64,000 bases of DNA from a virus (IMGVR_UViG_3300033066_001617:4145-68144); one strand, 5' to 3'; positions 3,081-38,199 are shown, counted from the first letter of the stretch. The notes: a model not told the origin generated them from the sequence alone. Numbers and translations: made by a program.

Positions 3081-3271
3081 ACCCATCGCTTCTCCACAAG
3101 AGCACCTTCACCAAATATCAGTATCATCTTCGGATGCGTGAGGCCTGCGAATCCGAATTCATCCACGGCAGTATGGATCCCGAAGCTTGTCTCGAAGACT
3201 GGCTTCGGGCGAACGCTGCTATCGCCAAGATTGTCCACACTTCCGGCTCAGTCCAACGTTGGATCGCTTAG
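3077..3271 (+). CDS. hypothetical protein
   Basis: 64-aa ORF with ATGA overlap. Confidence 0.5.
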   Translation: MNPSLLHKSTFTKYQYHLRMREACESEFIHGSMDPEACLEDWLRANAAIAKIVHTSGSVQRWIA

Positions 3272-3281
3272 GGGAATTACC

Positions 3282-4022
3282 ATGATCACCGTACTGAAAG
3301 TCGCCCTGTCCCTCATCTTCGGAGTCATCGTTACGACTCTGTCGTATCTCATCGCGAATTGGCTGGGTCTCTATGACCTGATGACTCTCGACTTGCTCGA
3401 GTTCTTCGCCGTCGCGACGTCCTACTCCTGCACGCTTCTCTGCGTGATCCAGTCCCGTTGGAACTACCCAATCGGCATGATCACGACAGCCGCCTATGTC
3501 GTTCTCTTCTGGAACGCCGGACTACTCGCTTCGAGCGTGCTCAACGCCCTGCTCTCGGTGTACCTGATCTACGGCTGGTTCCGGTGGCGCCCGGATGCAG
3601 TGACACGTCCGGTCACCAAGATCGGCTTTTCTCCCTGGCTCTTGGGCTACGCGGCCATCGTCGCAGTGACGTACTACTTCCTGATGCTCGCTGGGCACAT
3701 CGTCGCTCGCTGGACCGGCACGGAGTTCGCTTTCATCTGGACTGACTCGACCATCTTGGTCGCGACGATCCTTGCCCAACTCTTGATGGACAACAAGCGT
3801 CTGGAGAATTGGGGCATCTGGATCCTGGTCAACATCTTCTCCATCTGGACCTATTCCGAGCAGGGTCTATACATCGTCATGATCCAGTACATACTTTTCA
3901 TCGGGTATGACATCGGCGGCTTCCTCCAGTGGCGCGGGTCAATGCGGCCCAAGGAGTGGAATATGAACACGAGTTTCACGATATCACACAGTGATATCGA
4001 AACCGGCAACTGGAGGAGCTAA
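3282..4022 (+). CDS. pnuC: nicotinamide riboside transporter PnuC
   Basis: Multi-TM protein with WNYPIG, YGWFRW, AQLLMDNKRLENWGIWILVN. Probable start is the ATG at 3282 after GGGGA SD. Confidence 0.85.
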   Translation: MITVLKVALSLIFGVIVTTLSYLIANWLGLYDLMTLDLLEFFAVATSYSCTLLCVIQSRWNYPIGMITTAAYVVLFWNAGLLASSVLNALLSVYLIYGWFRWRPDAVTRPVTKIGFSPWLLGYAAIVAVTYYFLMLAGHIVARWTGTEFAFIWTDSTILVATILAQLLMDNKRLENWGIWILVNIFSIWTYSEQGLYIVMIQYILFIGYDIGGFLQWRGSMRPKEWNMNTSFTISHSDIETGNWRS

Positions 4023-4072
4023 TTTCTCTTTGGGCGACATCTTCGAGCGCTGGGTAGAGAAGGAGCTAACGA

Positions 4073-5152
4073 ATGCGCCGCAACGGCCTGATCCTAATGA
4101 CGGCTCTTCCGCCGACAGTGGGCCATCAGTATCTGATCAACTTCGCCTCGAGATTTCTGACGAACATAGACCCGGCCGGCAGGGTCTATGTCGTCGTCTG
4201 CTCGAGAAGTTTCGAGCCTATCTCAGGAAGACTTCGCTATCTGGCGATCGCTGAGCAGTTTGCCAGTGTCAAGAACGTGCAGGTCGTCCATTGGAAGGAC
4301 GACAATCTGCCGCAGAACCCAGAGGACAATCCTGACTTCTGGAACATCTACCGGAAACTTCTGGAGGAGAATCTGCCAGAAGACATGACAGGCTCATATG
4401 TCTTCGCATCGGAAGAATACGGCCGGGACATCGCCAAACTCATCAACGGCGAATTCATTCCGTGCAACGTCTATCGCGAGACGATCAACATTCATGCGAC
4501 CGAGGTGCGGCGAAATCCTCGTCAGCATTGGATAAGTCTCATGCCAGCATTCCGGAAACACTGGCAAGTTCGTGCAACGATTTTCGGTGCCGAATCCACG
4601 GGCAAGACGACAGTCTCCAAAAGCATCGTCGCCAGTGATCCCAGCCAATTCGTCTATGTCCCGGAATGGGCTCGAGAATATCTCGAGTTGCAGGAGACAC
4701 CAGAGACCACAGATCATCGCATGGAGATGATCGCATATGCTCAAGCGTCGATCGAACTCTGTGCCCAAAATTTGGACAAACCGTTCGTCATTCAAGATAC
4801 TGATCTGCTTTCCACGATCGGTTATTACCAGATCTACTCTAAGGATCTCGCCAAACATGGAGAGTCCTGGGCGAGATGGGCCTTTCGCCCAGCCGATATT
4901 TACTTCGTGATGCCGGACACGATCTCCTTCACGAAAGATCCGCTTCGCTATGGGGGAGATCATCGAGAAAGCGACACGGCTTTCTGGATCAAACTTCTGG
5001 AGGAATACGATTGTCGCTATCACTATGTCAAGAATACTGATCGCAACCGGCAGGTCTATGAGATCCTCGAAGTCCTTGATCAGACCTTCGAGCAGAAGAT
5101 GGATGTGCCAGCCCTGAAGAACTTCACGCGGGAGAAGCCAGCTTCATCCTAG
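4073..5152 (+). CDS. nadR: NadR-like bifunctional NMN adenylyltransferase / ribosylnicotinamide kinase
   Basis: N-terminal PPTVGH (HxGH-like), C-terminal P-loop GAESTGKTT, EWAREYL and QDTD; directly follows pnuC. Confidence 0.85.
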   Translation: MRRNGLILMTALPPTVGHQYLINFASRFLTNIDPAGRVYVVVCSRSFEPISGRLRYLAIAEQFASVKNVQVVHWKDDNLPQNPEDNPDFWNIYRKLLEENLPEDMTGSYVFASEEYGRDIAKLINGEFIPCNVYRETINIHATEVRRNPRQHWISLMPAFRKHWQVRATIFGAESTGKTTVSKSIVASDPSQFVYVPEWAREYLELQETPETTDHRMEMIAYAQASIELCAQNLDKPFVIQDTDLLSTIGYYQIYSKDLAKHGESWARWAFRPADIYFVMPDTISFTKDPLRYGGDHRESDTAFWIKLLEEYDCRYHYVKNTDRNRQVYEILEVLDQTFEQKMDVPALKNFTREKPASS

Positions 5153-15493: not shown

Positions 15494-15949
15494 ATGGCAA
15501 AAACCACGGTAGCCAAGCGCACGCGGCGCGGTAGAGCGGGTCTCGCATATCGTGGTCCGGACGCGTTCACGACCAACATGAGAGATCGCCGTGACCGTAT
15601 CGGCGGCGTGAAGTGGACCCAACGAGACGGAACAAAGATCTGTCTTCGGGACATGACTCTCGAGCACATCGGCAAGTGCATCATCATGTTGATGAAGAAG
15701 ATCGAGGACAACGAACAAAAGGAAGCCTCCAGCAGCGGTGGCTCACTTTCTGGCGGGGAGTTCTCTCAAATGGAGGCCGAACTCTCAGATGCATATCTTC
15801 GTCACGAAATCCGTCGCTTGAAAGCGATGATCTCCATTTTTCGTGACGAACTCATGTTCCGGGCAATGCCGGAATTCACGCCGGATGATTTCCGCGCAGT
15901 AGCAGACAAAGGGGAGACTTCAGGTGCCGTCGATCACAGTATCAAATGA
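15494..15949 (+). CDS. hypothetical protein
   Basis: ATG at 15494 after GGAGG. Confidence 0.55.
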   Translation: MAKTTVAKRTRRGRAGLAYRGPDAFTTNMRDRRDRIGGVKWTQRDGTKICLRDMTLEHIGKCIIMLMKKIEDNEQKEASSSGGSLSGGEFSQMEAELSDAYLRHEIRRLKAMISIFRDELMFRAMPEFTPDDFRAVADKGETSGAVDHSIK

Positions 15950-17597
15950 CTTCTTTCGCCGTGAGAAGAACCACCTCTACGGCAACTGGCGGATGGCGTT
16001 CTGGCGCGAACTGTTCCAGAACAGCGTGGACGCTGGCTCGACCGAAATCCACATTTCCTACTCCTGGGTGAAGACCAAGGACAAGGAACATTCGTGGGGC
16101 AACGATGAAGGTCGTGCCGAAATTTCCTTCGCCGATAACGGGCACGGCATGACCCAGGACGTTCTCGAAAACGTCTACTACGTCCTGGGCAAGACCACGA
16201 AGAACGACGGATCCACGGTCGGTGGTTTCGCCCGTGCCCGCATCCTCACCAATTTCGCCATGGACGAATATCAGATCCACACGCTCGACAATCTCGTGAA
16301 GGGCAGCGGATCTCACTATGACATAACGAAGACGGATTTCTATCAAGGTTGCATTCAGACCATCTGGAATTCGGAGGATGACTCCGGGTCGCTTCCTGTC
16401 ACTCTGATGGAATATCTCGCCCGCTGCGACATGCGACACCCGACCACCGGCGAGTCAGTACGAATCTTCTTCAATGGTGACGAGATCCACACGCGATGCA
16501 TCGCTGGTCGTGCTTATCGCGAGATGCTCGACGAAATGGACTTCCTGCGTGAGAGATTCTCCGGCGAGGTCTGGGCCACCCTCTATGAGGGAACGAAACA
16601 CGATACCGGAAACATGGTCCATATCCGTGCCCATGGCAACGAGATGTTCTCCATCTCAACTACCACAGAACGGTCGTATATTCTTGAGTTGGAACCCAGC
16701 CGGTCCCGTGAAGTGCTTTCGGCATCTCGGGATAACCTGAAGAATGCGTTCCAGTCTATTCTCAACAAGTTCATCCAGAAAATGGTGAGCGACGAAGAAG
16801 AGGCCCGCAATCCACCAAAGACGATCGAAGAGCGGTTCTATGAGGGCACCGGCTGGACGAAGACCGCCAAGGCCGGCGGCGACGATATTCACGTCATGAC
16901 CCGGCAGGAAGCCGAAGCGAAGGGCTTTAGTCTAAATACATTGATCGGTGAACTCCAAGGAGACTGGAGACTCATCTACTCCAAGGAATTCCATGAAAGG
17001 GGCGGCCAGTACGAATCAACCGAAGAGGGCTACAAGGTCCCTGTGAAACACCTCGTGCCGGCTACCCCAATGCTCATCCAGGGCACGAACCCCAAACTCT
17101 GGCAGTTGGCGGATCAATACGATCCGAACAACTGGTTCATCAACATCAACGGAAATATGGTCCACACCGGCAAGTGGATCAATAATTTCAACCTGCTCGC
17201 CATGTGGAAAGAAGCCTGCCGCTTGGCGATGCAAGTTATCGTCGATCATGAGATCGCGGACAAGAGTGTCCTGTGGTGCGCCGGCTTCGTGATATCGGAT
17301 GATCCAGATACTGTGGCTCTAAATCTCAGGGATTGGGGCTATCACGAGGTCAACGGGGAGCAAACCTATGACGAGGCTTATCGCCTCATGCTCAACCCGC
17401 TAGACGAAGATCTTCTGCCGAAATACAAGCTCGGAAAGGCAGAGCATCTCCGCAAGATTCTCGCTGCGGCGGCGCACGAGGTGTGTCACTGTTTCCATCA
17501 TGATCACACCGCCAGCTTTGCGGCTCTTCTCACCGAGTTCCTCGAAAAGCATGTCCAGGCCGATATGTTGTCCTCGATGAGGGCGGCCCGCTTCTAA
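15924..17597 (+). CDS. GHKL (HATPase_c) ATPase with C-terminal HEXXH metalloprotease-like motif
   Basis: RELFQNSVDA (N box), FADNGHGM (G1), LGKTTK, GGF; C-terminal AAAHEVCHCFHHDH...F. Confidence 0.75.
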   Translation: MPSITVSNDFFRREKNHLYGNWRMAFWRELFQNSVDAGSTEIHISYSWVKTKDKEHSWGNDEGRAEISFADNGHGMTQDVLENVYYVLGKTTKNDGSTVGGFARARILTNFAMDEYQIHTLDNLVKGSGSHYDITKTDFYQGCIQTIWNSEDDSGSLPVTLMEYLARCDMRHPTTGESVRIFFNGDEIHTRCIAGRAYREMLDEMDFLRERFSGEVWATLYEGTKHDTGNMVHIRAHGNEMFSISTTTERSYILELEPSRSREVLSASRDNLKNAFQSILNKFIQKMVSDEEEARNPPKTIEERFYEGTGWTKTAKAGGDDIHVMTRQEAEAKGFSLNTLIGELQGDWRLIYSKEFHERGGQYESTEEGYKVPVKHLVPATPMLIQGTNPKLWQLADQYDPNNWFININGNMVHTGKWINNFNLLAMWKEACRLAMQVIVDHEIADKSVLWCAGFVISDDPDTVALNLRDWGYHEVNGEQTYDEAYRLMLNPLDEDLLPKYKLGKAEHLRKILAAAAHEVCHCFHHDHTASFAALLTEFLEKHVQADMLSSMRAARF

Positions 17598-24529: not shown

Positions 24530-24984
24530 CGTACCCGCCTGCGTTTCCGTGGTGTGGCCGTCATTTCTGCGAGAATTTGTTCAACCTTATCAAATTCCGT
24601 ACCCCAGTATTCAATTCGAATACGAGCTTCATCTCTCACTTTTATGAAATGATGTAGAATATCCTCATCGCAGTCTATTTCTTCACGAAGAACATTGCAT
24701 GTGAATCTCGTCTGTCCCCAGGAATCCTGAGTAAAACTTGGAGTCCCAGCGACTTTCTGGTGTTGTATCTGGGAAAGGACTTCCTTCGTGCTCTGGAAGA
24801 CGTTTTCCTCTTCAGGCATGAGGTGCTGAGGTTGCAATTCACCCTTGACGAAACGAGCTTTGGTAGCTTCATCTGGAATACGATGAAACTCAATTTCACA
24901 GAGTTTGCTCAGCACAGCGAGAGTGATGCCGTAAATGGCGTTCACTTCATTGCTCGTGAACTTGAGTACGACCAACCTGCTCAT
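24526..24984 (-). CDS. hypothetical protein
   Basis: 152-aa ORF, coupled on both sides. Confidence 0.55.
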   Translation of the reverse strand: MSRLVVLKFTSNEVNAIYGITLAVLSKLCEIEFHRIPDEATKARFVKGELQPQHLMPEEENVFQSTKEVLSQIQHQKVAGTPSFTQDSWGQTRFTCNVLREEIDCDEDILHHFIKVRDEARIRIEYWGTEFDKVEQILAEMTATPRKRRRVR

Positions 24985-25409
24985 GGCGGATAAGCAGACG
25001 GCCAGACGTAAGGGAGAAAATGCGAAACGTCAGGGAATTTCGCGCTATAGAAAGCCGGGTCTTTCCGTATGAGATTTGATTGATGTGACATATGGAAAGC
25101 AGGATCACCATACCACCACGGCTTCAGCCCGGGAGGTACTACAGATTCATCTTGAAAAGGGGAATTCGGCACGAGCGTGTTGCGATAGCCACGAGAGACC
25201 CATTCTGCAATCGCCATCGCACGATAAAATTCCAGGAAGTCGACGTATCGCAACCACATCTGCGCCGCCGGGTGATTGAACCAGCCGCCACCGCGGGCTC
25301 GTATGGCCGTGATGAGTTGTCCGGCTTCTATTCTTTGTTTCCCGAGGCGTCTATAATCCAACGCCTGCATGCTCTTCGCTACGTCTGGATACGGCAAGAA
25401 TGTCTGCAA
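24981..25409 (-). CDS. pyrimidine-dimer DNA glycosylase family (MSMEG_6728-like)
   Basis: MQTFLPY...LDYRRLGKQRIEA...NHPAAQMW...SHQSNLIRKDP. Confidence 0.8.
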   Translation of the reverse strand: MQTFLPYPDVAKSMQALDYRRLGKQRIEAGQLITAIRARGGGWFNHPAAQMWLRYVDFLEFYRAMAIAEWVSRGYRNTLVPNSPFQDESVVPPGLKPWWYGDPAFHMSHQSNLIRKDPAFYSAKFPDVSHFLPYVWPSAYPP

Positions 25410-26710: not shown

Positions 26711-27238
26711 CTACGACTTGGAGGGCTCTCCCTGGGTCTCCGCCGACGGCTTTTCGGCCTCTGCAACCGGCTCTGGCTTGGGCTCCAGGAAGCCGCTGCG
26801 ATCCACAGGCGGCTTGTCGCTCGAGCCGAAGCCACCCTCGCCACGCGCCGTCTCGTTGATGCTGGAGACCTCGAGCATCACCGGAACATGCACGGAATGG
26901 AAGACGGCCTGGGCGATCTTGTCTCCGGCGGCGGCCGCGAAGTTCTTCGTGCCGGTGTTGATGAGGACGACCTTGACCTCACCACGATAGTCAGGATCGA
27001 CGACGCCGCAGCCGACGATGATGCCTTGCTTCGCGGCGAGACCGCTGCGGGCTTCGACCTTCATCCACAGGTGCGGCGGAATCTCGAACTTGAGGCCGGT
27101 CGGAACGGCGAGACGCTCACCCGGCGCCAGATTGAAGGGCTCGACGCAGAAGAGGTCGAACCCAACAGAGTCGACCGAACCGTGCTCCGGCATCTTTGCA
27201 TTCTCGTGACACTTCAGAACCTTGAGAACAGTGCTCAT
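26711..27238 (-). CDS. dut: trimeric dUTPase
   Basis: GFDL, RSGLAAKQG, GVVDPDYRGE, GDKIAQAV, RGEGGFGSS. Confidence 0.95.
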   Translation of the reverse strand: MSTVLKVLKCHENAKMPEHGSVDSVGFDLFCVEPFNLAPGERLAVPTGLKFEIPPHLWMKVEARSGLAAKQGIIVGCGVVDPDYRGEVKVVLINTGTKNFAAAAGDKIAQAVFHSVHVPVMLEVSSINETARGEGGFGSSDKPPVDRSGFLEPKPEPVAEAEKPSAETQGEPSKS

Positions 27239-29154
27239 TTAGGAGCCTCGTATTGATGGGTTTTGAGATTGTACTTGACGATGGAGCCCCAATTCTGGCC
27301 GCATTCCAGATCGACCTTGGAGGGTACGACTTTCGGCTGGGCTTCGAGCATGATCTCGACAGACCGCCGATAATCTTCCGGATGTGCGCCGTCGATGCGG
27401 TCAATCTCGTCGTGTACTGTGAGCGCTGGAACGATTCCCTCGCGCCACATCATACGCATAGCACGTTTGTTCTCATCAGCGGCAAAGGGCTGTATCAAAG
27501 CATTCAGAGCCTTATTCGTACGAGCCCTGCGATTCGTGCCCGGGAAGATCGGGAAACGAGACCGACGACCATCAGGGGTACGAATCCATCCGCGCTGCTC
27601 GACGACCTTCTTGCAGATGTCGGCAAGCTCGCGAACGAACGGAGCCTCTTGGTCAAATTTACGGAGGATCTCTCTGGCTTCCGGCCCAGCCTTCTGGAAT
27701 TTGATTTCCTCACCATTGCGTTTCCAGGTGGACCATTCCCAGGGAAGCCCAAGGTCTTCTGCGAGAGCTCCGCCGCCCTGTCCGTAGGCGATACCCAAGG
27801 CGACGATCTTTGCCTGCGGTCTTGGTAGGCCAGTCATTTCAGCAACGAATTTATAGAAATCCGTCGAGGGGTCTTCTTGATAACGCTTGACGAGAGATTC
27901 TGCTGTCCGAAGCTTGTAATTGCCCGGCATCTTCAGATAGGTCTCGTAGGCCATCGTTACGATGCCACGAGGCTCCTGCTGGGAATAGTCGTGCGTTCCC
28001 CAGACACAACCTGGTTCAGCCTCGTAACATCCGCGGACGTCCGGGCCAATTTCTTCGTCACGTGCAGGGATCTGTTGAAGGTTGGGCGTCTGACTGGAGA
28101 AACGGCCGGTGATGGTGCCCTTGCTTCCACCAGTTTCCTTATCAGCCTTCAGTGAATTGAGAGTCGTGTGAATTCGCCCGTTGTGTTGGTGCTCTAGAAT
28201 ACCATTCTCAAGGAATGTTGAACGTGACTTATTGAGCTTCTTGCCCCTATTGATCAAACCCGCCAGGGGAATAGTTTTAGAAAGTGACTTAAGAATTTCA
28301 TCTGTTACTTTCTTCTTACCACTCTTCGGTGTCAGTTCAAATACGACACCGAAAGTCTCAAGGGCAGAGGCAATGGACTGTGTTTCAGTAAGGGATATCG
28401 TAACGCCGGTCTGCCTCTTTACTTCATCAATCACCTCTTGCTCTCGTTTGAGATAGGATTGCTGAAGTTGCTCTGTCTTCGATATATTGACCGGCACACC
28501 CCTAATTCGCATCTCTACGAGAAGAGGTATCAGGTCACATTCAAGTTCGTATACATTATCAAGTTCATCCGCTGTGATCAGTGGTGTAAGAACATCGAAA
28601 GTGTCTCGAGTTGATTTCGTATCTTGTTTCGCATATGTGGTCACTTCACTGGCATGAAATCGCCAGAGATTGGCTACTGTATCCTTGGGCTTGATTCCAC
28701 GTTTTCTCGCGGCTTCATGGAGCTCATCATACGCCTTGCCCATGTCGATACCGACATAGTCTTTCGCGAGAGAGTCCAGAGAGTAGACAAATCTGTGTTC
28801 GTCCAGGAGTGGAGCTTGGAACTGAACGTCGTGTAGTCGGCCCCTGACCGGAATACCGTGATATTTCAGCCAACCGAAATCATATACAGAATTGGCAAAA
28901 ACCTTTGACTGACTTTCGTCACCCAGCACGCTCTTGAGCCAGCCCTCCACACGGGCTGGGTCCATGTTCCCGCCACCTTCGTGACGAACCGGGAGATACT
29001 CGTGGAAGTTATCGGCGTGAACGGAATAGCCCACGACATGACCACGTCCTGGGAAAGCCCAGGCAGGTCCGGTATTCTTTAGATCTGTATCTTTTGTCTC
29101 TGTATCGAGTGTGATGAAGGGACCATGGAGGCGATCTGGAAGTTGAATGTCCAT
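27235..29154 (-). CDS. polA: family A DNA polymerase with 3'-5' exonuclease domain
   Basis: LDTET, TGRFSSQTPNLQQIP, motif A DYSQQEPR, motif B RPQAKIVALGIAYG, motif C VHDE. Confidence 0.95.
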   Translation of the reverse strand: MDIQLPDRLHGPFITLDTETKDTDLKNTGPAWAFPGRGHVVGYSVHADNFHEYLPVRHEGGGNMDPARVEGWLKSVLGDESQSKVFANSVYDFGWLKYHGIPVRGRLHDVQFQAPLLDEHRFVYSLDSLAKDYVGIDMGKAYDELHEAARKRGIKPKDTVANLWRFHASEVTTYAKQDTKSTRDTFDVLTPLITADELDNVYELECDLIPLLVEMRIRGVPVNISKTEQLQQSYLKREQEVIDEVKRQTGVTISLTETQSIASALETFGVVFELTPKSGKKKVTDEILKSLSKTIPLAGLINRGKKLNKSRSTFLENGILEHQHNGRIHTTLNSLKADKETGGSKGTITGRFSSQTPNLQQIPARDEEIGPDVRGCYEAEPGCVWGTHDYSQQEPRGIVTMAYETYLKMPGNYKLRTAESLVKRYQEDPSTDFYKFVAEMTGLPRPQAKIVALGIAYGQGGGALAEDLGLPWEWSTWKRNGEEIKFQKAGPEAREILRKFDQEAPFVRELADICKKVVEQRGWIRTPDGRRSRFPIFPGTNRRARTNKALNALIQPFAADENKRAMRMMWREGIVPALTVHDEIDRIDGAHPEDYRRSVEIMLEAQPKVVPSKVDLECGQNWGSIVKYNLKTHQYEAPK

Positions 29155-29178
29155 GGTCCCATCACGGAAAAGAGGAAG

Positions 29179-30192
29179 TTACTTGCCGACTACCCCGGCC
29201 ATCGGGTTGTCGACCTCGTCCTGGAACAGCGTGCGCTCGTGGTCCGAGAAAGACGTGTCTTTCAGCAGATGCTCCTTGAGCGCGTGATTCTTCCACGGGT
29301 GCTCGGTCGTACGGGAACCCTGCGACCACATCTTGCGGAACCGCTCGAAGAGGACCTCATCCTCGACGGGCTTGCCCATGGTCGCCTGATATTCCGTGAA
29401 CACCTCCGGCACCGCATTGCGGATGAATGCCGCCATCGCTTGGGCCGTAGTATACGTCCCGAGAAAGTTGGCGACAAGCTGTTCTTCGCTCGCAATGCCT
29501 CGCAGGTAGATGTATCCGCGGAGCAGGGCGCGCTTGCCGGCGTCGGTGGTCTTCCAGCCGAAGTTGCGCCGAGGACCTTCCTCACCTTCGCCGGCCGTGT
29601 CCTTGGGCTTCCGGCCGCGCGGCTGGGACGGCGCCTCGACGATCGGCATCGACTTGGTCGACTCGGTCATCGCGAGCACACGCATCGAGACCGACATCAG
29701 ATATTCGAAGTCGTACTGCGCATCCGGCTCACCCTCCAGGGTTTCCCAGAGGTCCATCTTGCGCTCTTTCAGCATCTTGATCAGGCGGCGCCACGCCTTG
29801 ATCATGTTGATCCAGATGCCGGTGCCGCCGAACTCGTCCCAGTCATCGTCCAGTTCGACCGAGAGGATCTTCTCGATATCCGCCGGCATGAGGTCGAACC
29901 GAGAAACCTTGCGGTCGCCGCTCAGGAAGTTGTGGGTCAGAAGACCGTAGCCCACGAAATCCGTGAGATCGTCGCGGCAACCATCGCGCCGAGCATCGTT
30001 CGCCATGACGATGATGTCGTTGCCGCGGCTCTTGGCCTGCGTCTCCATCCGATCCCACTTGCGGGAAAGGTTGAAGAACGCGCTCAGGCCCTCGTACTTC
30101 CGCCAGGACGAACCGTAGTCCCGGTCCTTGATCTCGAGCTGGGCGACGACCGCCATCCCAGCCTTTGTCGCCTCTTCGTTACTGACCGACAT
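29179..30192 (-). CDS. DUF1599 / Nmad1-like (nucleotide-modification-associated, MazG-like fold) protein with a tandem degenerate repeat
   Basis: KDRDYGSSWRKYEGLSAFFNLSRKWDRM...DDLTDFVGYGLL; probable start is the ATG at 30192. Confidence 0.6.
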   Translation of the reverse strand: MSVSNEEATKAGMAVVAQLEIKDRDYGSSWRKYEGLSAFFNLSRKWDRMETQAKSRGNDIIVMANDARRDGCRDDLTDFVGYGLLTHNFLSGDRKVSRFDLMPADIEKILSVELDDDWDEFGGTGIWINMIKAWRRLIKMLKERKMDLWETLEGEPDAQYDFEYLMSVSMRVLAMTESTKSMPIVEAPSQPRGRKPKDTAGEGEEGPRRNFGWKTTDAGKRALLRGYIYLRGIASEEQLVANFLGTYTTAQAMAAFIRNAVPEVFTEYQATMGKPVEDEVLFERFRKMWSQGSRTTEHPWKNHALKEHLLKDTSFSDHERTLFQDEVDNPMAGVVGK

Positions 30193-30949
30193 GAACAGCC
30201 TCCAATGGGTGTCTATCATAGAGGGAGAAAGCCTGAGCGACGTAGAGCATGCGCTCTTTCTCCTTCTGGGTTATCATGTTGCCTTGCAGCAACAAGCCAG
30301 CATATACCGGCAGAGCGTCGCATACTTGGTGGTATTTTGTCCCCATGATGGTGTTGCCCATCCTCGCTTCTCGGTTGCAGAAGACGAGGAACTCGAACGC
30401 GTCGAGATACGAGAAAATCGCTTTCTCAACGTCAGTGAGGTCACTTGGACCCATCTGGCGCCACTGAATAGTGTCGCTGACCTCATTGTAGAGGGCGTAG
30501 AGTTCCGGAGAATAACTCTTCGCCGTCCTGGGCATATCACCCAGAGCGTATTCCGGCGAATCATGATAGATGATGTGCCGCATCAATTCCGCACTGGCCT
30601 TGCTTGGGAAAATCTCCTGAAGCAACAAGAGAATTCCCCAGGTGTGCTGACCAGTGGTCTGAACAGCGATTGTCGGGAAAGCATGAAGACGAGCCGTCCA
30701 TCCAGATTCCCAGCGTTCCTGGATGGACATATTCGGCACCCAGCCGAGCGCCTCGAGTTCTTTGCGAACCGTCTTCACGATGGCGGCAGTAACCTGATCA
30801 TCCGGTGCTGGGACCAGGTTATAGGCGATCGCAAGGCAGGCCGACTTGACTTGCCTTCTACCGAGCTTGGTTTTGATCGCAAGGTAATTGTAGACGTCGG
30901 TGTTGACGCCTTCATGTTCCCATTTCGGGAGTTTCTGGGAATCGCTCAC
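30179..30949 (-). CDS. HD-domain 5'-deoxynucleotidase (YfbR-like) with an N-terminal extension
   Basis: RLH...QTTGQHTW...YHDSPEYALGDMP...YLDAFE. Confidence 0.8.
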   Translation of the reverse strand: MSDSQKLPKWEHEGVNTDVYNYLAIKTKLGRRQVKSACLAIAYNLVPAPDDQVTAAIVKTVRKELEALGWVPNMSIQERWESGWTARLHAFPTIAVQTTGQHTWGILLLLQEIFPSKASAELMRHIIYHDSPEYALGDMPRTAKSYSPELYALYNEVSDTIQWRQMGPSDLTDVEKAIFSYLDAFEFLVFCNREARMGNTIMGTKYHQVCDALPVYAGLLLQGNMITQKEKERMLYVAQAFSLYDRHPLEAVHVGQ

Positions 30950-32016
30950 TTCGCTGCCCTCCGCTTCAGCCAGTTGACGCAGACTTCCCGAAAGATTGGA
31001 ACTGCGATCTGACTGGCTTGATCCAGCGCCGCTTCCGGTCTCTTATTCTTGTAGTAGCGATAGGAGCGGATCAGGGGAACCAACAGGTCCGTCGCGACCT
31101 TCGAGACAGCCGGCGGCTCGGTGAATTCATCCGGAAGACGATAATCGCCTGCGACGCAATCGAAGAGATCGTTGCAAAGCACGGTCAAATACCCATCGAA
31201 ATTGAGCCGCTGATCGAGATCCATACCCATCAGCAGTTCATCGAAATACGTGAAGCCTTCGGTAGCCTCCACGTGATACGCGGTCTGCAGACCCCCACCT
31301 TGACCGATGTGATCCATCACGTCCTTGGAGCGTTCATTCTCCAAATAGAGATGGCTGTTGTTCGAGAACTGCCAGTACGATCCTGGCATCATATTGAGCA
31401 GAGCCGCCACATAGTGATGGAACAGACTGAAGTGAACCACGTTCGCGCCGAATGTACCGTAGACCAGGTCATTCGAGCGATTGATAACAGTGATGTTGAA
31501 ACGCCGAGATCCGTCTTTCATGGGAAGACAGCGAAGAAGGATCTCCGTGTTGCACGGAATATCCTTGGAATTGCGACCGAGATCCTCACCACTATCCCAA
31601 TGGGAAATGACCACACGCCGGCTGTCCGGGTTCTTGCTGAATTCCTTCACGGCGTACAGGATCTGGTCCTGTCCGAAATAGCTCCTCCACCGACGCCCAT
31701 ACGCCGATCCCATGATGGTCTTGCCATCGTCGGAATACTGACGCATGCCTGAATTGAAAAATGCCAAGCTGTCCAGATCATCGCGGCCACAAATCATGTG
31801 GAAGAACTCGATGATGTGGAAGAATGGATTGGCTTCCCGATGTCGGTCGTCGTAGAGGAAATTGTACGGAAACTGAAGTTCCGTCATGACCGGCTCTGGG
31901 TAGACGAGAACCGGCCCATTCCGGCTCTCCTCCCGTTGTCCGTACTTCATCAGATGTCGGAGGACCTGCGTGGAGATCTCTCCGACATTTCGGCCGACGA
32001 AATTGTACATCCTCAA
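30946..32016 (-). CDS. thymidylate-synthase-fold enzyme, probable dUMP hydroxymethylase
   Basis: AYGRRWR, DSRRVVI, catalytic DIPCN, NRSNDLVYGTFGANVVHFS (Asn at the uracil-specifying position), SHLY; 356 aa. Confidence 0.8.
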   Translation of the reverse strand: MRMYNFVGRNVGEISTQVLRHLMKYGQREESRNGPVLVYPEPVMTELQFPYNFLYDDRHREANPFFHIIEFFHMICGRDDLDSLAFFNSGMRQYSDDGKTIMGSAYGRRWRSYFGQDQILYAVKEFSKNPDSRRVVISHWDSGEDLGRNSKDIPCNTEILLRCLPMKDGSRRFNITVINRSNDLVYGTFGANVVHFSLFHHYVAALLNMMPGSYWQFSNNSHLYLENERSKDVMDHIGQGGGLQTAYHVEATEGFTYFDELLMGMDLDQRLNFDGYLTVLCNDLFDCVAGDYRLPDEFTEPPAVSKVATDLLVPLIRSYRYYKNKRPEAALDQASQIAVPIFREVCVNWLKRRAAK

Positions 32017-32804
32017 TACTCCGGAGCTTGGGTTCCGCTATAGGCGGCCTTCCATTCGACATCGACGTCCCAGCGAAGACCACCCTTGACGCCGTTCGCA
32101 TCTCGCCAGTTGTTCGACTGCTTCTGGACGGCGTGGACAATACCTGGGAACATCTTCTCGAGTTGCTTCGCGTTCTTCTCCATTACCTCGTGGGTGCGGT
32201 AGAGGGAAACGCCGCCAACCGCGTTCGAACCGTTCTTCTGGTCGATGCAGTAGTTCGTGATGATCCGGTTGTACCGTCCGGCCTGAAGCACGGAGAGAGT
32301 GATATACATATCCTGACGGATCTTGACCGCATCGGCACGAATGCCGTGCTTCCGCATGAAATCGAGATCGTATCCGTGGACCTGCATCTGACGAGTGCAG
32401 TCCTTGAAACGAAGAGGGAAATTGTTGTCGTTGAAAGTCCTCTGGGAAATGCCGACCAGAGGAAAGCCTTGTCCCAGGAGATCCTGCAGGATGTCGAAAC
32501 AGTTGTCGACATCCTCAGGCTTGCAGGGAGCCAGACGGCTGCTCTTCGGATCTGCCCAATGGGCGAACTTCAGATCGTCATCGCACACGATGACATGGCG
32601 ATCCTCGCAGGTGTCCCAGATATGCTGGATGACCTTGGAAAGACCATTGACCGGACGAGCCACCGCATTCCGACCCAGCGCCCGATGAACTTCAACCTCG
32701 TCGGGCGGACAGATGATCTGGGTTATCGCACGAGTTCTGGGACCCATGAAATCCCACGTGATCTGAGTCGAGGTCCGGCCACGACTCGCGATGAAAATCT
32801 TCAT
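32013..32804 (-). CDS. GT-A fold glycosyltransferase, TET/JBP-associated (TAGT/GREB1-like) type
   Basis: KIFIASRGR, IVCDDDL (DxD-like), RQDMYITL, SNAVGG, C-terminal RWDVDVEWKAAY. Confidence 0.7.
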   Translation of the reverse strand: MKIFIASRGRTSTQITWDFMGPRTRAITQIICPPDEVEVHRALGRNAVARPVNGLSKVIQHIWDTCEDRHVIVCDDDLKFAHWADPKSSRLAPCKPEDVDNCFDILQDLLGQGFPLVGISQRTFNDNNFPLRFKDCTRQMQVHGYDLDFMRKHGIRADAVKIRQDMYITLSVLQAGRYNRIITNYCIDQKNGSNAVGGVSLYRTHEVMEKNAKQLEKMFPGIVHAVQKQSNNWRDANGVKGGLRWDVDVEWKAAYSGTQAPEY

Positions 32805-32829
32805 GGAACCCTCTCTGTTGGATGGTTAC

Positions 32830-32858
32830 AGTTTAGCGCCGGTACCCGCCAAGGACAA
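32830..32858 (-). promoter_or_regulatory. sigma70-like promoter TTGTCC-N17-TAAACT upstream of the glycosyltransferase
   Basis: Exact 17-bp spacer filling the 56-bp gap; GAGAGGG SD follows. Confidence 0.55.
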
Positions 32859-32860
32859 TC

Positions 32861-33754
32861 TTAGAGAGGTCTTGTGGAGGGTACGAATCTATTCTTGAGG
32901 CGTTCGCCACCCTGGGCCTTGATGTACTTGGCGATCTCGCAAAGGGCGAACTGGACGCAGTGCAGATCAAACTCGTTTATCGGACTTGGCATCCAGGATT
33001 CCATTCGCTTAACACAGATATCGTGTAACGCCTTGATGCAGGCCAGACCGAATTTCTCGTTCATCTTCTTGGACGCCTCGCCGCCCAATAGAAGATTGAT
33101 GCCCCTACGAGCTCCAGGCCCAACAGGAGTCCATTCGAACCGATCCGTGCAATTCCGAAGAATTGGCGTCAACATGACATCTTGCAGCACTTCCTTCGTC
33201 ATGAAGCCCGTGCCGCCGAAACCGGGAAAGTTGTACATCATCTCACCGACGGCTTGCCATTTCTGGGTCCGTGTGGCGATGTCGATCAGACCAGGTAGAT
33301 GTTCCCAAAGGGTTCTAAGATAATGCTTGACAACGACGATCCACTTCTTGTCGGCGATACCGCCGTTCGTGATGAGATATGCGCTGGTGAAACTCTTGAG
33401 GCCGCGGTTGTTCCTGTCCTCAGCGACATCCATGATGTGCTGGGGATTCCACTCTCGCTGATAACCCAGAGCCTGACAGAATTCCACGGTCCCGAAATAG
33501 CGGGCGATGGCGCAGTTGATGAACTGGATGCGATTGGGTTGATCGAAATTGGGCTCGTACCAATTCTTCAGGAGCCACTGTGTCGTGCGATCGTGAATAC
33601 GCAGGACATTCGTGAACTTGAAAGTGCGTAGAATGGTGTCATTCGTCCAGGGGGAGGGCTTTCCGGCGACCCTTGCGAGTCGAATACGTTCCCTTTCGTG
33701 GAGATAATAGAAGAAAGTGTCGAGTCTCTTCGGATCAAAATGGATCTCAGACAT
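32861..33754 (-). CDS. aGPT-Pplase1 / 5-hmdU DNA kinase helical-domain family protein
   Basis: HERERIRLAR..GKPSPWTNDTILRTFKFTNVLRIHDR, HhH-like FPGFGGTGFMTKEV, VGPGARRG, QFALCEIAKY. Confidence 0.75.
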   Translation of the reverse strand: MSEIHFDPKRLDTFFYYLHERERIRLARVAGKPSPWTNDTILRTFKFTNVLRIHDRTTQWLLKNWYEPNFDQPNRIQFINCAIARYFGTVEFCQALGYQREWNPQHIMDVAEDRNNRGLKSFTSAYLITNGGIADKKWIVVVKHYLRTLWEHLPGLIDIATRTQKWQAVGEMMYNFPGFGGTGFMTKEVLQDVMLTPILRNCTDRFEWTPVGPGARRGINLLLGGEASKKMNEKFGLACIKALHDICVKRMESWMPSPINEFDLHCVQFALCEIAKYIKAQGGERLKNRFVPSTRPL

Positions 33755-33822: not shown

Positions 33823-34674
33823 TCAGAACGGGGTGTCGAGAGATCCGGCGGTGCTGGAGCCCTCGGTCGACGGAGTCGCTTCACCTTCCGGCGTCTCGCC
33901 TTCGGTCGGAGCCGCCGCGCCTTCGGTCGTGGTCGGCGCCGGTGCCGGCGTCAGGGTCTCACGACCCTTGTCGGTCAGTGCCAGAGCGATCAGCTCGCCG
34001 CTCTCGCTCTTGTGCTCGGTGATCAGGCCCTGCTCGACGCACGACGCGATGCCCTTCGAGAGGTTCTTCAGGGTCTTCTTCATCGACTCGGCGACCTTGA
34101 CGACGAGCGCGCGGCCGTCCTCGGCGGTCTGGCCCTTGATCGCCTCGAGGATCTCGATGACACCCTTCGAGGTGCGGGGCTTCGCCGGTTCCTTGCCGGC
34201 CTTCGGGGCCTTCTCGCCACCGGCCGAGGCACGCTTCTTCTGGAGCAGATCGGCCGCGGCCTCATCGACCGTGGTCGTGAAGAAGCCGCGCTTGATGCCA
34301 CCGACCAGATAGCCGCGGACATGGCGCTCTTTGTTCGCCTCGAACGCGGTCGACTTCTTGAAGAGATCGCCGCTCTTCTCGATCGTCGCCTCGGTGAACT
34401 GCTTGGCGGTCAGGCCGTCCGGATGGCCCAGCAGGATCGCCTGCATGATGCCGTAGGTCGTGCCCTCGGTCGCGGGGGTCTTGCCGGCGAAGAAGATCTT
34501 GTCGGCGAGCTCGTGACGCACGCGATTGCCGATATTCTTCTCACCGCTCTCGGTGGCCGGAGCCGCCGCACCTTCCGTGCTCGCCGGCGCGGTCGTCGAG
34601 GCCTCCGCGGCCTCCTCGGTCGTCGCCGTTTCCGGGTTCTCTGCGGTCGTTGCCGCCTCGTTGACGTCGCTCAT
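33823..34674 (-). CDS. putative abundant DNA-binding protein with two winged-helix-like domains and acidic Ala/Thr/Glu-rich tails
   Basis: Probable start ATG at 34674. Two folded segments flanked by low-complexity tails; the second ends in a MarR-like LTDKGRETL. Strong GC3 codon bias. Confidence 0.55.
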   Translation of the reverse strand: MSDVNEAATTAENPETATTEEAAEASTTAPASTEGAAAPATESGEKNIGNRVRHELADKIFFAGKTPATEGTTYGIMQAILLGHPDGLTAKQFTEATIEKSGDLFKKSTAFEANKERHVRGYLVGGIKRGFFTTTVDEAAADLLQKKRASAGGEKAPKAGKEPAKPRTSKGVIEILEAIKGQTAEDGRALVVKVAESMKKTLKNLSKGIASCVEQGLITEHKSESGELIALALTDKGRETLTPAPAPTTTEGAAAPTEGETPEGEATPSTEGSSTAGSLDTPF

Positions 34675-34708
34675 GTGTGAACTCTCTTTCACGTGTTGCA
34701 ATAGTGAC

Positions 34709-34753
34709 AACCTAGCAAGACTGATCCGACTTTACAATGGTAGTCTTGCTAGG
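34709..34753 (-). promoter_or_regulatory. promoter TTGTAA-N17-TAGGTT with a 12-bp perfect inverted repeat
   Basis: CCTAGCAAGACT (34711-34722) and AGTCTTGCTAGG (34742-34753) bracket the -35 and overlap the -10. Confidence 0.55.
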
Positions 34754-34777: not shown

Positions 34778-35770
34778 TTAGAACGGCACGTCCCCGTCCT
34801 TGATCGGCCCAGATGCGCCGGTCTCGGATGCCTGGGCCTCGTCCGACGGATGCTGGACGGTGATCAGGTCGTCCTGGATGGCCTTCGCGAACTTCTTGGC
34901 CTCCTGGTAGAGGTCCTCGCCGCCCGGGATGATGAAGGTGCTCTCCGGCGTGTTCGTGAAACGCTTGACGTCGCCGAAGAACTTGATTCCCCAGCCGTAC
35001 CACGAACCCTGATCGTTGGACTCCGGCAGGGAATCGAGTCGATAGGCCGAGAAGAACATGGCCGGCGTGAAACGCTTGCCGGTGATGGGATTGACGATCA
35101 TGCGATTGCCGATCGTCGTGTTCCAGTTCTTCCCCTTGCGGAACTGTGTCGAAGACATCGACAGCACGCACCGCTCGTAGGACCAGTCGGCCGGATCGAG
35201 CAGGAAGGAATAGAACACCGCCGACGTGACGATGACCGTCCCGGCGGGCGTGATGTCCTTGCCCTTCTCGTCCCTCTTGGTGTTCTTGAGGGCCGAGTCG
35301 TCCTGCTTCCAGTCCTTGACCAGACCCCCACCCTTGTCGTCGCGCTTGCGCCACTCGGTATAGCGCCGCGAATAGACGACAGGAAGGACGATCAGGCCGT
35401 TCTCCTGCTTCCAGACCCGCATCGTCACGTTGTTGAAGAAGTCGCCCGGCTCGGCACCCTTGATGAATTCGGGAACCGTCTTGTCGACCTGCGGAGACAT
35501 TTTCTGCAGGATCGAAATGAACGGGATTGCCATGTCCTCGGTGGACACGTTCTCCCGACCCATGCCGGAGTCTTCTTCGAACTCCGAGAACTCGCTCCGC
35601 TCCTGGGCGGGAGCGACCGTCAGTCCGGACGGAGCATTGTCGACGACTGTGACTGCACCGCCGGCGGAAAGACCCTCGGTCATTTCGACCTTCGGTCCTT
35701 CGGTCACCGGCTCTGCGACCACCGTCTCGACGGGCTTCTCTTCCGTTTTCACACTGGATTCTTTCGCCAT
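34778..35770 (-). CDS. putative single-stranded DNA-binding / annealing protein
   Basis: DMAIPFISILQKMSPQV, GSWYGW, acidic C-terminal tail DGDVPF; lies in the replication module. Confidence 0.6.
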   Translation of the reverse strand: MAKESSVKTEEKPVETVVAEPVTEGPKVEMTEGLSAGGAVTVVDNAPSGLTVAPAQERSEFSEFEEDSGMGRENVSTEDMAIPFISILQKMSPQVDKTVPEFIKGAEPGDFFNNVTMRVWKQENGLIVLPVVYSRRYTEWRKRDDKGGGLVKDWKQDDSALKNTKRDEKGKDITPAGTVIVTSAVFYSFLLDPADWSYERCVLSMSSTQFRKGKNWNTTIGNRMIVNPITGKRFTPAMFFSAYRLDSLPESNDQGSWYGWGIKFFGDVKRFTNTPESTFIIPGGEDLYQEAKKFAKAIQDDLITVQHPSDEAQASETGASGPIKDGDVPF

Positions 35771-35838
35771 GGTACCCTCTTTGTTATTCCCAATTAAAGC
35801 ATGCCGATGGTTCAGCTACAAGCCGCGACTGCTCAGCA

Positions 35839-36414
35839 TCACTTCAAAGTGATCTTCCAGAACGGGTTCGGTTTGATCATGGCAGGGTCGATCACCTCGC
35901 CGTTGGCGACCATCTCCCGCACGAGCGCTGCCAGAGTCTGGAAGTGAATGTGCTCCTTGGACGCGGCGGGAATGCCGGCCTCCTTCAAAACCTCCAGAGC
36001 CTTCTGGGCGATAGCCTCTTCGCCCATGCCTGTCGCGACTTTGATCTCGAATTTGATGATCGAGCCGTGACCTTTCTCCCGAAGCCACTCGAATGTCTTG
36101 GACTCCGTCTCCTTCGGAATGCTGGGACGGAAATCCTCCTTGGCCTGAAGAGTCTCGCCGGTCGTCAGAGTCAACTTCTTCAGACCCAGGACTGTGAGGA
36201 TCCCTGGGATGTCGAACTGCTCCAGCTGATCTTGGATCTTCTTCTGCTGGGCCATCTCGGTTTCGAGACGAGCCATTTCGCCGCGAACCAGTTTCAGCTG
36301 ATTGGCGAGTTTGGTGAGGGAAAGAAGCTGGCCGTCCTTCCCTTCAAGACTTTTCAAAGCCTCGGCATCGGCCTCGAGATCGTCGAAGAATGCTTCTTCT
36401 GTGGTGTCCGCCAC
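35839..36414 (-). CDS. replication-module hypothetical protein (coiled coil)
   Basis: 191 aa; FEWLREKGHGSIIK; between SSB-like gene and SNF2 helicase. Confidence 0.6.
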   Translation of the reverse strand: MADTTEEAFFDDLEADAEALKSLEGKDGQLLSLTKLANQLKLVRGEMARLETEMAQQKKIQDQLEQFDIPGILTVLGLKKLTLTTGETLQAKEDFRPSIPKETESKTFEWLREKGHGSIIKFEIKVATGMGEEAIAQKALEVLKEAGIPAASKEHIHFQTLAALVREMVANGEVIDPAMIKPNPFWKITLK

Positions 36415-36450
36415 GGGTGCCTCCTAGATTGGACATATATCTTAGCACAC

Positions 36451-38199
36451 CTAAGCGGTGGCGAGAATTTCTCTGAGGTCTACAAGCATCGTAGCGACGT
36501 CAATCTTACCTTGCAGATTATTGACGATGAAATCATCAATGGAATGTTCAGTCTTCATATAGATGTCGGTGACTCTCTTTGTCTGCCCAGCGCGATGATT
36601 TCGATCCATCGCCTGGAGATAGATTTCCAAGTTCATATCGTAGCTGTACCAGATCTTGAATTCCGCCTCGTTGATGTTTAGACCGATACCACCTGTGGCC
36701 GGATTCATGATGATCCGGTTATGTGTCTTGGAATCTTTGAATTGCTGAAGGGCGGCAGCGCGCTGACTATCGTTCCCAGCATAGATCAAGTAAGGCATAT
36801 CCGCCTTTTTCATCTCTCCGCCGAGCAACGTCACGTCTGGGCGGAACTTGGCCCAGATGATAGTCTTTGAAGCGTCTCCGATTTCCTCCAGTGTCGCCAC
36901 CGTTTCGGCAGCCCGATTGGTCGGAATGTCAATGTGTTCTTTCTCTTCGGTCGTGGCGTGACCGCAGAGTATCTGATGCAGTCGCATGATGCGCGTGATC
37001 GCAAGCGCGCCGGAAATAATGTGGCCGTCCTGGGTCTCTGTGATGAAATTCTTCTTGAGATCTTGATAGATCTTGAACTGATCAGGATGGAATTCGACGA
37101 TGCGATTCATCGCCATACGTTCTGGTAGATCCAGACAGTCCACCTTCAGTACGCGATAGCTGTAGGCGTCGATCTTCTGTTGCAACTCCTCCATATTCTT
37201 GTACGATTTGACTTGTTTGTTTTCCCAGCCTCCCATGACGCAGTAGTAATTCCTGAAGTCCGTCATGTACGGCATGCCCAGGATATTCTCGTCCAAGAAA
37301 TTGAACTGAGACTGAATATCCATTGGACCCTGGGTGATCGGTGTGCCAGTCGCAATCCTGCGATACGTGCAGAGTTTCCCGACCATGATAATGCCGTCGG
37401 TACGTTTTGAACTCATATGTTTGATACGAGAAGATTCGTCTACGATCATAAGAGTCTCACCCATTTCGCAGAAGCGCATCGCGAGAGCACGACCCTTGTC
37501 TGTCGAGAACGCATCGACGTTCATCGCCAGGATCTTCAGATAACCCATTGGTAGGCGGTTGATCTTCTCCTCAACATCCTCGGCCTTGGAGGCAGAATAA
37601 AGAACACTGATCCACTTGATCCCTTTCGGGGCATGGACCGGAAACTGTTCCTCCAGCCATTGACGATGAACACCTTTCGGCGCCACGATAAGAACTTGTG
37701 TGATTTTGACTTGCAGAAATAGATAGATGGCAGTGTCGATCAGGACTTTCGTCTTGCCCGTGCCCATTTCCATGAACAGCCCAAAGGCTTTCACATCACG
37801 AGACAGCATGAAGGCGCGAAGCTGATGATCGAATGGCTTTGTGCCGAATTCGTAATTGATGCCGCCACATTCGGCTATCAATTGTTCGGTGGTTAGATGC
37901 TTCCGAGATGTAATGACTTCGGCTGCATTGTCGGCATTACCGAGTCCTTCTAGAAATTGATGAGTGGACTCTTCCCAATTGATCTGCGTCGGAAGATTGT
38001 TTATGAAATGTCGAATAACCTGACCCTTGGGCTGGAGCCAGAGAGAACTGCCGACCCACTTCTTCTTTCCAGGGGCTGAGTTCCCAACGTCCATGAATTT
38101 GGCGAATATCTTACCAGAGATTATCAGGTACTTTCCATTAAATTCTGCTGTAAGCGGGCGGCCCGCTGCATAGGGCTGGAATGGCGCTTGGCCTTGCAT
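36451..38199 (-). CDS. SNF2-family (SF2) helicase
   Basis: PFDHQ, MEMGTGKT, IVDESS, ATGTP, TGGIGLN, QAMDRNHRAGQ. Confidence 0.9.
   Translation of the reverse strand: MQGQAPFQPYAAGRPLTAEFNGKYLIISGKIFAKFMDVGNSAPGKKKWVGSSLWLQPKGQVIRHFINNLPTQINWEESTHQFLEGLGNADNAAEVITSRKHLTTEQLIAECGGINYEFGTKPFDHQLRAFMLSRDVKAFGLFMEMGTGKTKVLIDTAIYLFLQVKITQVLIVAPKGVHRQWLEEQFPVHAPKGIKWISVLYSASKAEDVEEKINRLPMGYLKILAMNVDAFSTDKGRALAMRFCEMGETLMIVDESSRIKHMSSKRTDGIIMVGKLCTYRRIATGTPITQGPMDIQSQFNFLDENILGMPYMTDFRNYYCVMGGWENKQVKSYKNMEELQQKIDAYSYRVLKVDCLDLPERMAMNRIVEFHPDQFKIYQDLKKNFITETQDGHIISGALAITRIMRLHQILCGHATTEEKEHIDIPTNRAAETVATLEEIGDASKTIIWAKFRPDVTLLGGEMKKADMPYLIYAGNDSQRAAALQQFKDSKTHNRIIMNPATGGIGLNINEAEFKIWYSYDMNLEIYLQAMDRNHRAGQTKRVTDIYMKTEHSIDDFIVNNLQGKIDVATMLVDLREILATA

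Follow-up and report, generated by a model that had tools for sequence, protein, structure and literature searches.

Predicted two-stage replacement of thymine by glycosylated 5-hydroxymethyluracil in an uncultured phage with a widespread gene module

Does a phage predicted to replace thymine with 5-hydroxymethyluracil (5hmU) go on to decorate that base with a sugar rather than with an amino acid? The question is raised by seven genes that lie head to tail on the minus strand, at positions 26711-33754, in a 64,000-nucleotide stretch of an uncultured virus, IMGVR_UViG_3300033066_001617. This stretch, referred to here as the window, covers bases 4145-68144 of one 68,144-bp record, which IMG/VR describes as linear and CheckV estimates to be about 78% complete, leaving about 22% of the genome outside it. 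A first-pass annotation, made from the sequence alone, had proposed that the operon makes the 5hmU deoxynucleoside (5hmdU) before replication and glycosylates it on DNA, by a new pathway. We find that the genes probably form a two-stage module for thymine replacement and glycosylation, whose product would be an O-glycosyl-5hmdU resembling base J. Base J is the glycosylated 5hmU of kinetoplastid DNA.

Families were assigned to the open reading frames (ORFs) of the window with Pfam and PHROG profiles. All seven co-oriented genes were recovered where they had been annotated, and six of them received the family originally named. From the 5' end of the operon, with lengths in amino acids (aa), they are:

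32861..33754, minus strand: aGPT-Pplase clade 1 protein (HMUDK_hel, formerly aGPT-Pplase1; Pplase1 below), 297 aa; Pfam HMUDK_hel, E 1.7e-38, 133 bits, profile positions 3-275 of 281
32013..32804, minus strand: TAGT-family GT-A glycosyltransferase (GT), 263 aa; Pfam TAGT (PF20691), 23.6 bits, cut-off 27.5; phrog_842, E 1e-29
30946..32016 (likely start 32010), minus strand: thymidylate synthase (TS)-fold protein, predicted dUMP hydroxymethylase, 354-356 aa; Thymidylat_synt, E 3e-16; phrog_5131, E 7e-79
30179..30949, minus strand: HD-domain YfbR-like 5'-deoxynucleotidase, 256 aa; Pfam YfbR-like, 27.1 bits
29179..30192, minus strand: 337-aa protein, N-terminal ~90 aa Nmad1/DUF1599-like, C-terminal ~230 aa without a family match; DUF1599, 15.3 bits
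27235..29154, minus strand: family A DNA polymerase (PolA) with 3'-5' exonuclease, 639 aa; Pfam DNA_pol_A, E 6e-38, and DNA_pol_A_exo1
26711..27238, minus strand: trimeric-type dUTPase, 175 aa; Pfam dUTPase, E 3e-29

The tight packing of these genes counts in favour of their forming one module. Three of the four stop/start overlaps described previously were upheld: the TS and HD genes meet in a GTGA at 30946-30949, the HD gene overlaps the gene for the 337-aa protein by 14 nt at 30179-30192, and the dUTPase start overlaps the polA stop codon in an ATGA at 27235-27238. The fourth, between the GT and TS genes at 32013-32016, requires a TTG start for TS; an ATG at 32010, preceded by a GGAG at a distance of 8 nt, is the better candidate and would separate the two genes by 2 nt. 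A GGAGG also lies upstream of the start of the 337-aa gene at 30192, and scans for promoters and terminators returned nothing above chance.

We aligned the TS homologue with the td products of T4 and RB69, T4 gp42, RB69 gp48, SPO1 gp29 and the homologues of phages ViI, PhiW-14, M6 and PhiJL001. The alignment confirmed the annotated catalytic cysteine, in a PCN motif, and the asparagine at the position of ThyA N177 in RSND...GAN; the PCN and RSND motifs align with the catalytic Cys146 and the dUMP-binding Arg166/Ser167. In ThyA numbering, the enzyme carries Y94, K142, D143, P145, C146, N147, N165, R166, S167, N168, D169, G173 and N177. This active-site signature is identical to that of SPO1 gp29, down to the G173-N177 loop GTFGAN, and is common to the M6, ViI and PhiW-14 homologues, while differing from that of T4 gp42 and RB69 gp48. 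The characterisation of the SPO1 deoxyuridylate hydroxymethylase is credited to Wilhelm and Ruger (1992, cited in PMC8989533). According to the residue rules of Lee et al. (2026; PMC13326640), N177 specifies uracil and D177 cytosine, L143 keeps water out and so gives a methyl product, an acidic residue at 143 accompanies hydroxymethylation, and D169N marks the 5-hydroxy-dCMP synthases. Because N177, D143 and D169 fit these rules, the window enzyme is predicted to be a dUMP hydroxymethylase, as had been suggested. It is 33-34% identical over its full length to the M6, YuA and Ab18 enzymes, and a quick maximum-likelihood tree agrees with the assignment: the protein, on a long branch, shares a clade (SH-aLRT 98) with M6 gp58 and PhiJL001 gp24, whereas T4 gp42 and RB69 gp48 fall elsewhere.

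It is highly improbable that the TS homologue instead works as a normal thymidylate synthase or acts on dCMP (as a 5hmdCMP or 5hodCMP synthase), in which case the sugar would sit on a cytosine derivative or nowhere. Its best sequence match among solved structures, the CMP hydroxymethylase MilA (E 5e-14), speaks for such a reading, but residue 177 is Asn and not Asp, Asp169 is kept without the D169N mark of 5hodCMP synthases, residue 143 is Asp rather than the Leu of methyl-forming enzymes, and the tree separates the protein from the T4 and RB69 dCMP enzymes.

The second enzyme that defines the module is the GT. Its AlphaFold2 (AF2) model (predicted local distance difference test score, pLDDT, 94.1) has a GT-A fold, for which the Foldseek matches, at E about 1e-5, are GT-A enzymes that include TarP and TarS, and an acidic DXD-type motif, D75-D76-D77, is nearly invariant among its homologues. 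Compared by sequence with solved structures, neither the GT nor Pplase1 nor the 337-aa protein gave a useful match. Although the window copy itself falls below the Pfam threshold, 67 of its 68 aligned homologues (26-88% identity, E<=1e-3) match TAGT, with a best E of 2.6e-27, which together with the GT-A model supports membership of the TAGT family, as suggested earlier; other members of this family glycosylate hydroxymethylated DNA bases. Phage GTs associated with TET enzymes have been shown to glucosylate 5-hydroxymethylcytosine (5hmC) in DNA (PMC8256090), and the phage GT-A enzymes covered by a preprint structurally resemble the base J glucosyltransferase JGT of T. cruzi (bioRxiv 10.1101/2023.12.21.572611). 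We therefore treat the window GT as a predicted DNA 5hmU glycosyltransferase of the TAGT family.

What this GT subfamily acts on is best approached through the genes that accompany it. The module is common in viromes: an exhaustive HMMER search recovered 1307 GT cluster representatives at E<=1e-3 (word-indexed searches had given just two homologues of the GT and two of the 337-aa protein), and a TS homologue accompanies the GT in 64 of the 80 nearest loci. These 80 IMG/VR loci, retrieved with a 12-sequence GT alignment, hold the closest relatives of the window GT (29-39% identical); about 260 IMG/VR contigs in all bear a GT. Both TS and Pplase1 are present in 59 of them; five have TS only (two are cut at the contig end), three have Pplase1 only (all cut just past the GT), 11 have a Tet_JBP protein with neither TS nor Pplase1, and two have none of the three. 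Thus TS or Tet_JBP accompanies the GT in 75 of the 80 loci, and the two never occur together. The residues D143, D169 and N177 are found in 61 of the 64 TS copies, and the cytosine-type Asp in none. In both Tet loci that were examined (L054 and L087), a ParB_N protein stands beside Tet_JBP and the GT, as they do for the ParB-dependent thymine dioxygenases, an enzyme type characterised in 2026 (PMC13229309). In the GT tree, the Tet-linked enzymes form two clades nested among the TS-linked ones; for example, L054 and L056 are sister to L051, L057 and L062 (support 98) inside the clade that holds PhiJL001 gp22. Two unrelated routes to 5hmU thus pair with one GT subfamily, which makes 5hmU in DNA appear the most likely acceptor and constitutes the strongest argument of this analysis. 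One relative of the same subfamily occurs in a differing context: in locus L070 (7888-11832), it lies between two radical-SAM/SPASM proteins and a DUF2284 protein, without TS, Tet_JBP or Pplase1.

The thymidine hypermodification clusters of the Pseudomonas phages M6 and PaMx11, Salmonella phage ViI and Delftia phage PhiW-14 (PMC8989533) combine a dUMP hydroxymethylase, an HD hydrolase, Pplase1 and PolA in one module and share the logic of incorporating 5hmdU before replication and modifying it on DNA afterwards. These phages use a P-loop 5-hmdU DNA kinase (5-HMUDK), a Pplase2 (amino-acid or diamine:DNA transferase) and tailoring enzymes of the pyridoxal phosphate (PLP), radical-SAM and FAD types, whereas the window phage carries a GT instead and none of these was found. 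No tblastn match to M6 gp54 (5-HMUDK), gp51 (Pplase2), the PLP and radical-SAM enzymes or dCMP deaminases was detected in the incomplete genome. A three-sequence hidden Markov model (HMM) for 5-HMUDK had no match at E<=1 in the genome or the 80 GT loci, and neither did M6 gp51, a single query of limited sensitivity, for Pplase2. As a positive control, M6 gp54 found the ViI (3e-15) and PhiW-14 (1e-7) kinases; it had no match in the complete PhiJL001 genome. Within the incomplete record and the 80 loci, the kinase and amino-acid-transferase branch is absent, in line with the first-pass view that the base does not receive an amino acid. The Tet_JBP profile likewise had no match in the genome, but gave none in control genomes either and is weak evidence alone; our own Tet HMM found 11 of the GT loci and had no match in the window genome. 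The ORFs of the genome with a Walker A motif are helicases and a NadR-like protein beside PnuC. The latter, an AAA_28 protein at 4073-5152, was considered as the missing DNA kinase and rejected, as it adjoins PnuC and lies far from the module. The pair itself (3138-5152, plus strand), a PnuC nicotinamide-mononucleotide transporter (E 7e-35) followed by the 359-aa NadR-like protein (E 6e-18), looks like a phage NAD+ salvage system, possibly countering NAD-depleting host defences.

The computed results are the family of each gene, the dUMP-type active site, the failure to find a kinase or a Pplase2, and the counts of linked genes; from them we infer every enzymatic step, the identity of the sugar and the extent of replacement in the following scheme. 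Before replication, dUTPase, fed by a class II ribonucleotide reductase encoded elsewhere in the genome, would supply dUMP, which the TS homologue would hydroxymethylate to 5hmdUMP. The HD nucleotidase, which is homologous to M6 gp59 and PhiJL001 gp25 and present in 47 of the 80 GT loci, would lower the thymidine nucleotide pool by depleting dTMP and dTTP, possibly together with the Nmad1-like protein. Host kinases would make 5hmdUTP, and the phage polymerase, 35-37% identical to those of the M6/PaMx11/Ab18 group and HTVC023P, would insert 5hmdU in place of T. In the second stage, on DNA, the TAGT-family GT-A enzyme would move a sugar from a host nucleoside diphosphate (NDP)-sugar to the 5-hydroxymethyl group; UDP-glucose is named as the donor only as a guess, since no sugar-nucleotide gene was seen in the record. 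The resulting O-glycosyl-5hmdU would shield the DNA from host nucleases. The earlier proposal that the 5hmdU made before replication receives a sugar rather than an amino acid thus holds for the dUMP-type TS, the TAGT GT and the absence of kinase and Pplase2, and remains a prediction for the product.

Several points weigh against this scheme. Neither a dNMP kinase nor a dCMP deaminase (the latter sought by profile and by tblastn) was found in the genome, and because of its incompleteness a kinase, a dCMP deaminase and sugar enzymes could lie off the contig. We found no chemical data on the DNA bases of the window phage or of any relative and no measurement of glycosyl-5hmdU in a phage in the searchable literature; a search for old reports of sugar in SP8 DNA yielded nothing relevant. 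The GT scores below the TAGT cut-off, and the teichoic-acid GTs TarP and TarS are among its fold matches; phage GT-A enzymes also glycosylate teichoic acids, and a non-DNA acceptor is compatible with the fold. Along with the lack of sugar-nucleotide genes, these features would fit a phage that stops at plain 5hmdU DNA, like SPO1, with a GT that acts on a host surface polymer or protein, like the prophage enzyme TarP. We judge this distinctly unlikely, as the GT lies inside a replication and nucleotide operon, between Pplase1 and TS and with the TS start just 2 nt away, 75 of the 80 loci of its subfamily also hold an adjacent hydroxymethylpyrimidine-making enzyme, and its close homologues exceed the TAGT threshold. 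A further point against a simple O-glycoside is that Pplase1 keeps the cysteine that is catalytic in Pplase2 and may change the final product.

To our knowledge, the Pplase1 family has been without an assigned function since 2013. The window protein matches M6 ORF055 (gp55) and PhiJL001 gp19 by tblastn, and its translation has no P-loop or Walker A motif. Its AF2 model (pLDDT 93.6) shows a fold like that of helix-hairpin-helix (HhH) DNA glycosylases. The nearest solved structure is PaMx11 gp46, the 5-PmdU glycinyltransferase PUGT (Z 10.1, root-mean-square deviation 4.2 over 216 residues), followed by QNG1 and then by HhH DNA glycosylases (AGOG, EndoIII); a Z of this size is moderate for an all-helical protein, but the list is coherent. 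Foldseek returned no match for the model at E<=0.001. Cys272-Glu273 is invariant in 40 homologues, and a weak profile alignment (hhalign probability 1%) pairs the cysteine with the catalytic one of M6 gp51. In 61 of 62 loci Pplase1 points the same way as the GT, and in 58 the distance between them is at most 1.5 kb, whereas Pplase1 is missing from all 11 Tet_JBP-linked GT loci; it tracks the nucleotide-level 5hmU route and not the GT as such. A predicted complex of Pplase1 and the GT (score 0.16, mark 0.32) says nothing either way on binding.

These properties could be read to mean that the final base is not a simple 5hmU O-glycoside: Pplase1 would install or exchange a group on the C5 methylene with no kinase involved, and the role of the GT would be either to add sugar to this group or to provide the leaving group, giving a linker-plus-sugar base as in SP-15, YerA41 and Carin-5. 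The linkage to the GT, the invariant C272-E273, the structural proximity to a 5-PmdU glycinyltransferase and the alignment with the gp51 cysteine all speak for such chemistry, as does the existence of linker-plus-sugar thymidines in phages, those of SP-15, YerA41 and Carin-5 carrying a pentyl-type linker and a phosphate rather than being direct 5hmU glycosides (PMC12686479). We nevertheless think it unlikely. GTs of the same subfamily lack Pplase1 in every Tet_JBP-linked locus, which argues that the GT does not need it; M6 gp55 is dispensable in the reconstituted M6 reaction (PMC8989533); known Pplase2 enzymes require the phosphate from 5-HMUDK, which is absent here; and the hhalign probability is only 1%. 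Pplase1 belongs to the module but, as a member of a family without an assigned function, is not counted here as one of its working steps. A broader conjecture, which we hold with similar doubt, is that the phage group to which the window belongs replaces thymine wholesale with O-glycosylated 5hmU by a kinase-free route, and that the conserved stand-alone Pplase1 is a new enzyme whose substrate is DNA with 5hmU or glycosyl-5hmU. It would use Cys-C6 chemistry, perhaps to exchange or remodel the C5 substituent, and the final base would be an undescribed one.

Returning to O-glycosyl-5hmdU as the preferred product, the claim that the operon represents a new pathway could not be sustained. Its architecture is present in PhiJL001 (in GenBank since 2005), in phiRSL1 and in dozens of IMG/VR contigs, and the GT association has been surveyed: Pyle et al. 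examined about 25,000 GT contigs, in which GT-A enzymes were linked to ThyS about as often as to 5mYOX (bioRxiv 10.1101/2023.12.21.572611). The module architecture is thus known and widespread, and its product was predicted computationally years ago; the window, part of the incomplete genome of an uncultured phage, holds a minimal copy with a single GT. PhiJL001 (AY576273; Keylargovirus, Mesyanzhinovviridae) has the same order from gp19 to gp30, with Pplase1 as gp19, a TAGT-type GT as gp22, TS as gp24, HD as gp25 and PolA as gp28; its TS also has D143, D169 and N177, and its complete genome has no 5-HMUDK match. Protein identity to the window is about 26-32%, and a dCMP deaminase and additional small ORFs are present in PhiJL001, whereas the window has a dUTPase and a longer Nmad1-like protein. 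As early as 2005, the notes in its GenBank record compared gp22 with the T6 glucosyltransferase and gp24 with the dUMP hydroxymethylase of SPO1; we found no report on the composition of PhiJL001 DNA. Ralstonia phage phiRSL1 (ORF229-238) likewise holds Pplase1, TS and TAGT-type GTs in one operon, elaborated with three GTs, a sulfotransferase, an APS kinase and nucleotidyltransferases, in contrast to the single GT of the window. A further variant was seen in the ENA contig of P0004 (116,570 bp), which encodes Methyltransf_21, TAGT, HMUDK_hel, TAGT, TS, HD, proteins of 148 and 355 aa, DCD/dUTPase and a PolA fused to uracil-DNA glycosylase (UDG); in this larger phage, the module has two GTs and a methyltransferase besides.

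Comparison with better studied systems defines what the predicted route shares with them. In kinetoplastid base J synthesis (JBP1/2 and JGT) and in phage TET/5mYOX-GT clusters, a GT-A enzyme also adds a sugar to a 5-hydroxymethylpyrimidine in DNA (PMC8256090; bioRxiv 10.1101/2023.12.21.572611; PMC13229309). Those routes oxidise T in DNA, whereas the predicted window route would make 5hmU as a nucleotide via TS, so that all T could be replaced; the characterised phage TET-GT cases act on 5hmC. The T-even phages share the logic of a TS-fold hydroxymethylase (gp42) acting before replication and a glycosyltransferase acting on DNA, but their base is cytosine (Asp at 177), and the T4 alpha- and beta-glucosyltransferases are GT-B enzymes unrelated to TAGT.

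If the scheme is true, a whole class of phages carries sugar-coated thymine, which bears on restriction and CRISPR evasion, on the sequencing of such phages and on new enzymes for labelling 5hmU, and the recurrent pairing offers a handle on the Pplase1 family. PhiJL001 and phiRSL1 are practical test beds for the prediction. The window phage itself has no near-identical or close DNA relative in the phage collection that was searched, and near-identical sequence is present in activated-sludge metagenome runs. By similarity of polymerase, TS and Pplase1, its nearest cultured relatives are Mesyanzhinovviridae siphoviruses (M6, YuA, Ab18, PaMx11, PhiJL001) and HTVC023P-type pelagiphages, at 33-37% protein identity.

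The fifth gene of the operon is the one whose annotation stood only in part. The whole 337-aa protein has no Pfam or PHROG match, and its residues 1-110 score no more than 15.3 bits (E 0.026) with DUF1599/Nmad1 (PF07659), a profile whose cut-off is 25. The ESM Atlas ranks DUF1599 clusters first (features 0.89, structure TM 0.71), which gives a lead to calling the N-terminus Nmad1-like; the C-terminal part is unmatched. Conservation is confined to residues ~16-95, and the counterparts in 24 loci are ORFs of ~100 aa.

Other genes of the window lie around the module. Directly upstream of Pplase1, a 295-aa ORF (33823-34710, minus strand), in a region of 61% GC, encodes two winged-helix-like segments flanked by acidic tails rich in Ala, Thr, Pro and Glu; it has no family match, and a homologue occurs in one of the 80 related loci. 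Further upstream (34778-38199, minus strand) are a Pam3_Gp34-like gene, a DUF7307 (Pam3 gp33-like) gene and an SNF2 helicase gene, whose recurrence in 38, 29 and 46 of the 80 GT loci, respectively, indicates that they travel with the module. The replication operon of this phage, predicted to be thymine-free, also includes a T4 endonuclease V-like pyrimidine-dimer DNA glycosylase (24981-25409, minus strand; Pyr_excise, E 3.5e-17). On the plus strand, positions 15924-17597 encode a 557-aa protein with a GHKL ATPase (HATPase_c_3) N-terminus and a faintly YgjP-like metallopeptidase end.

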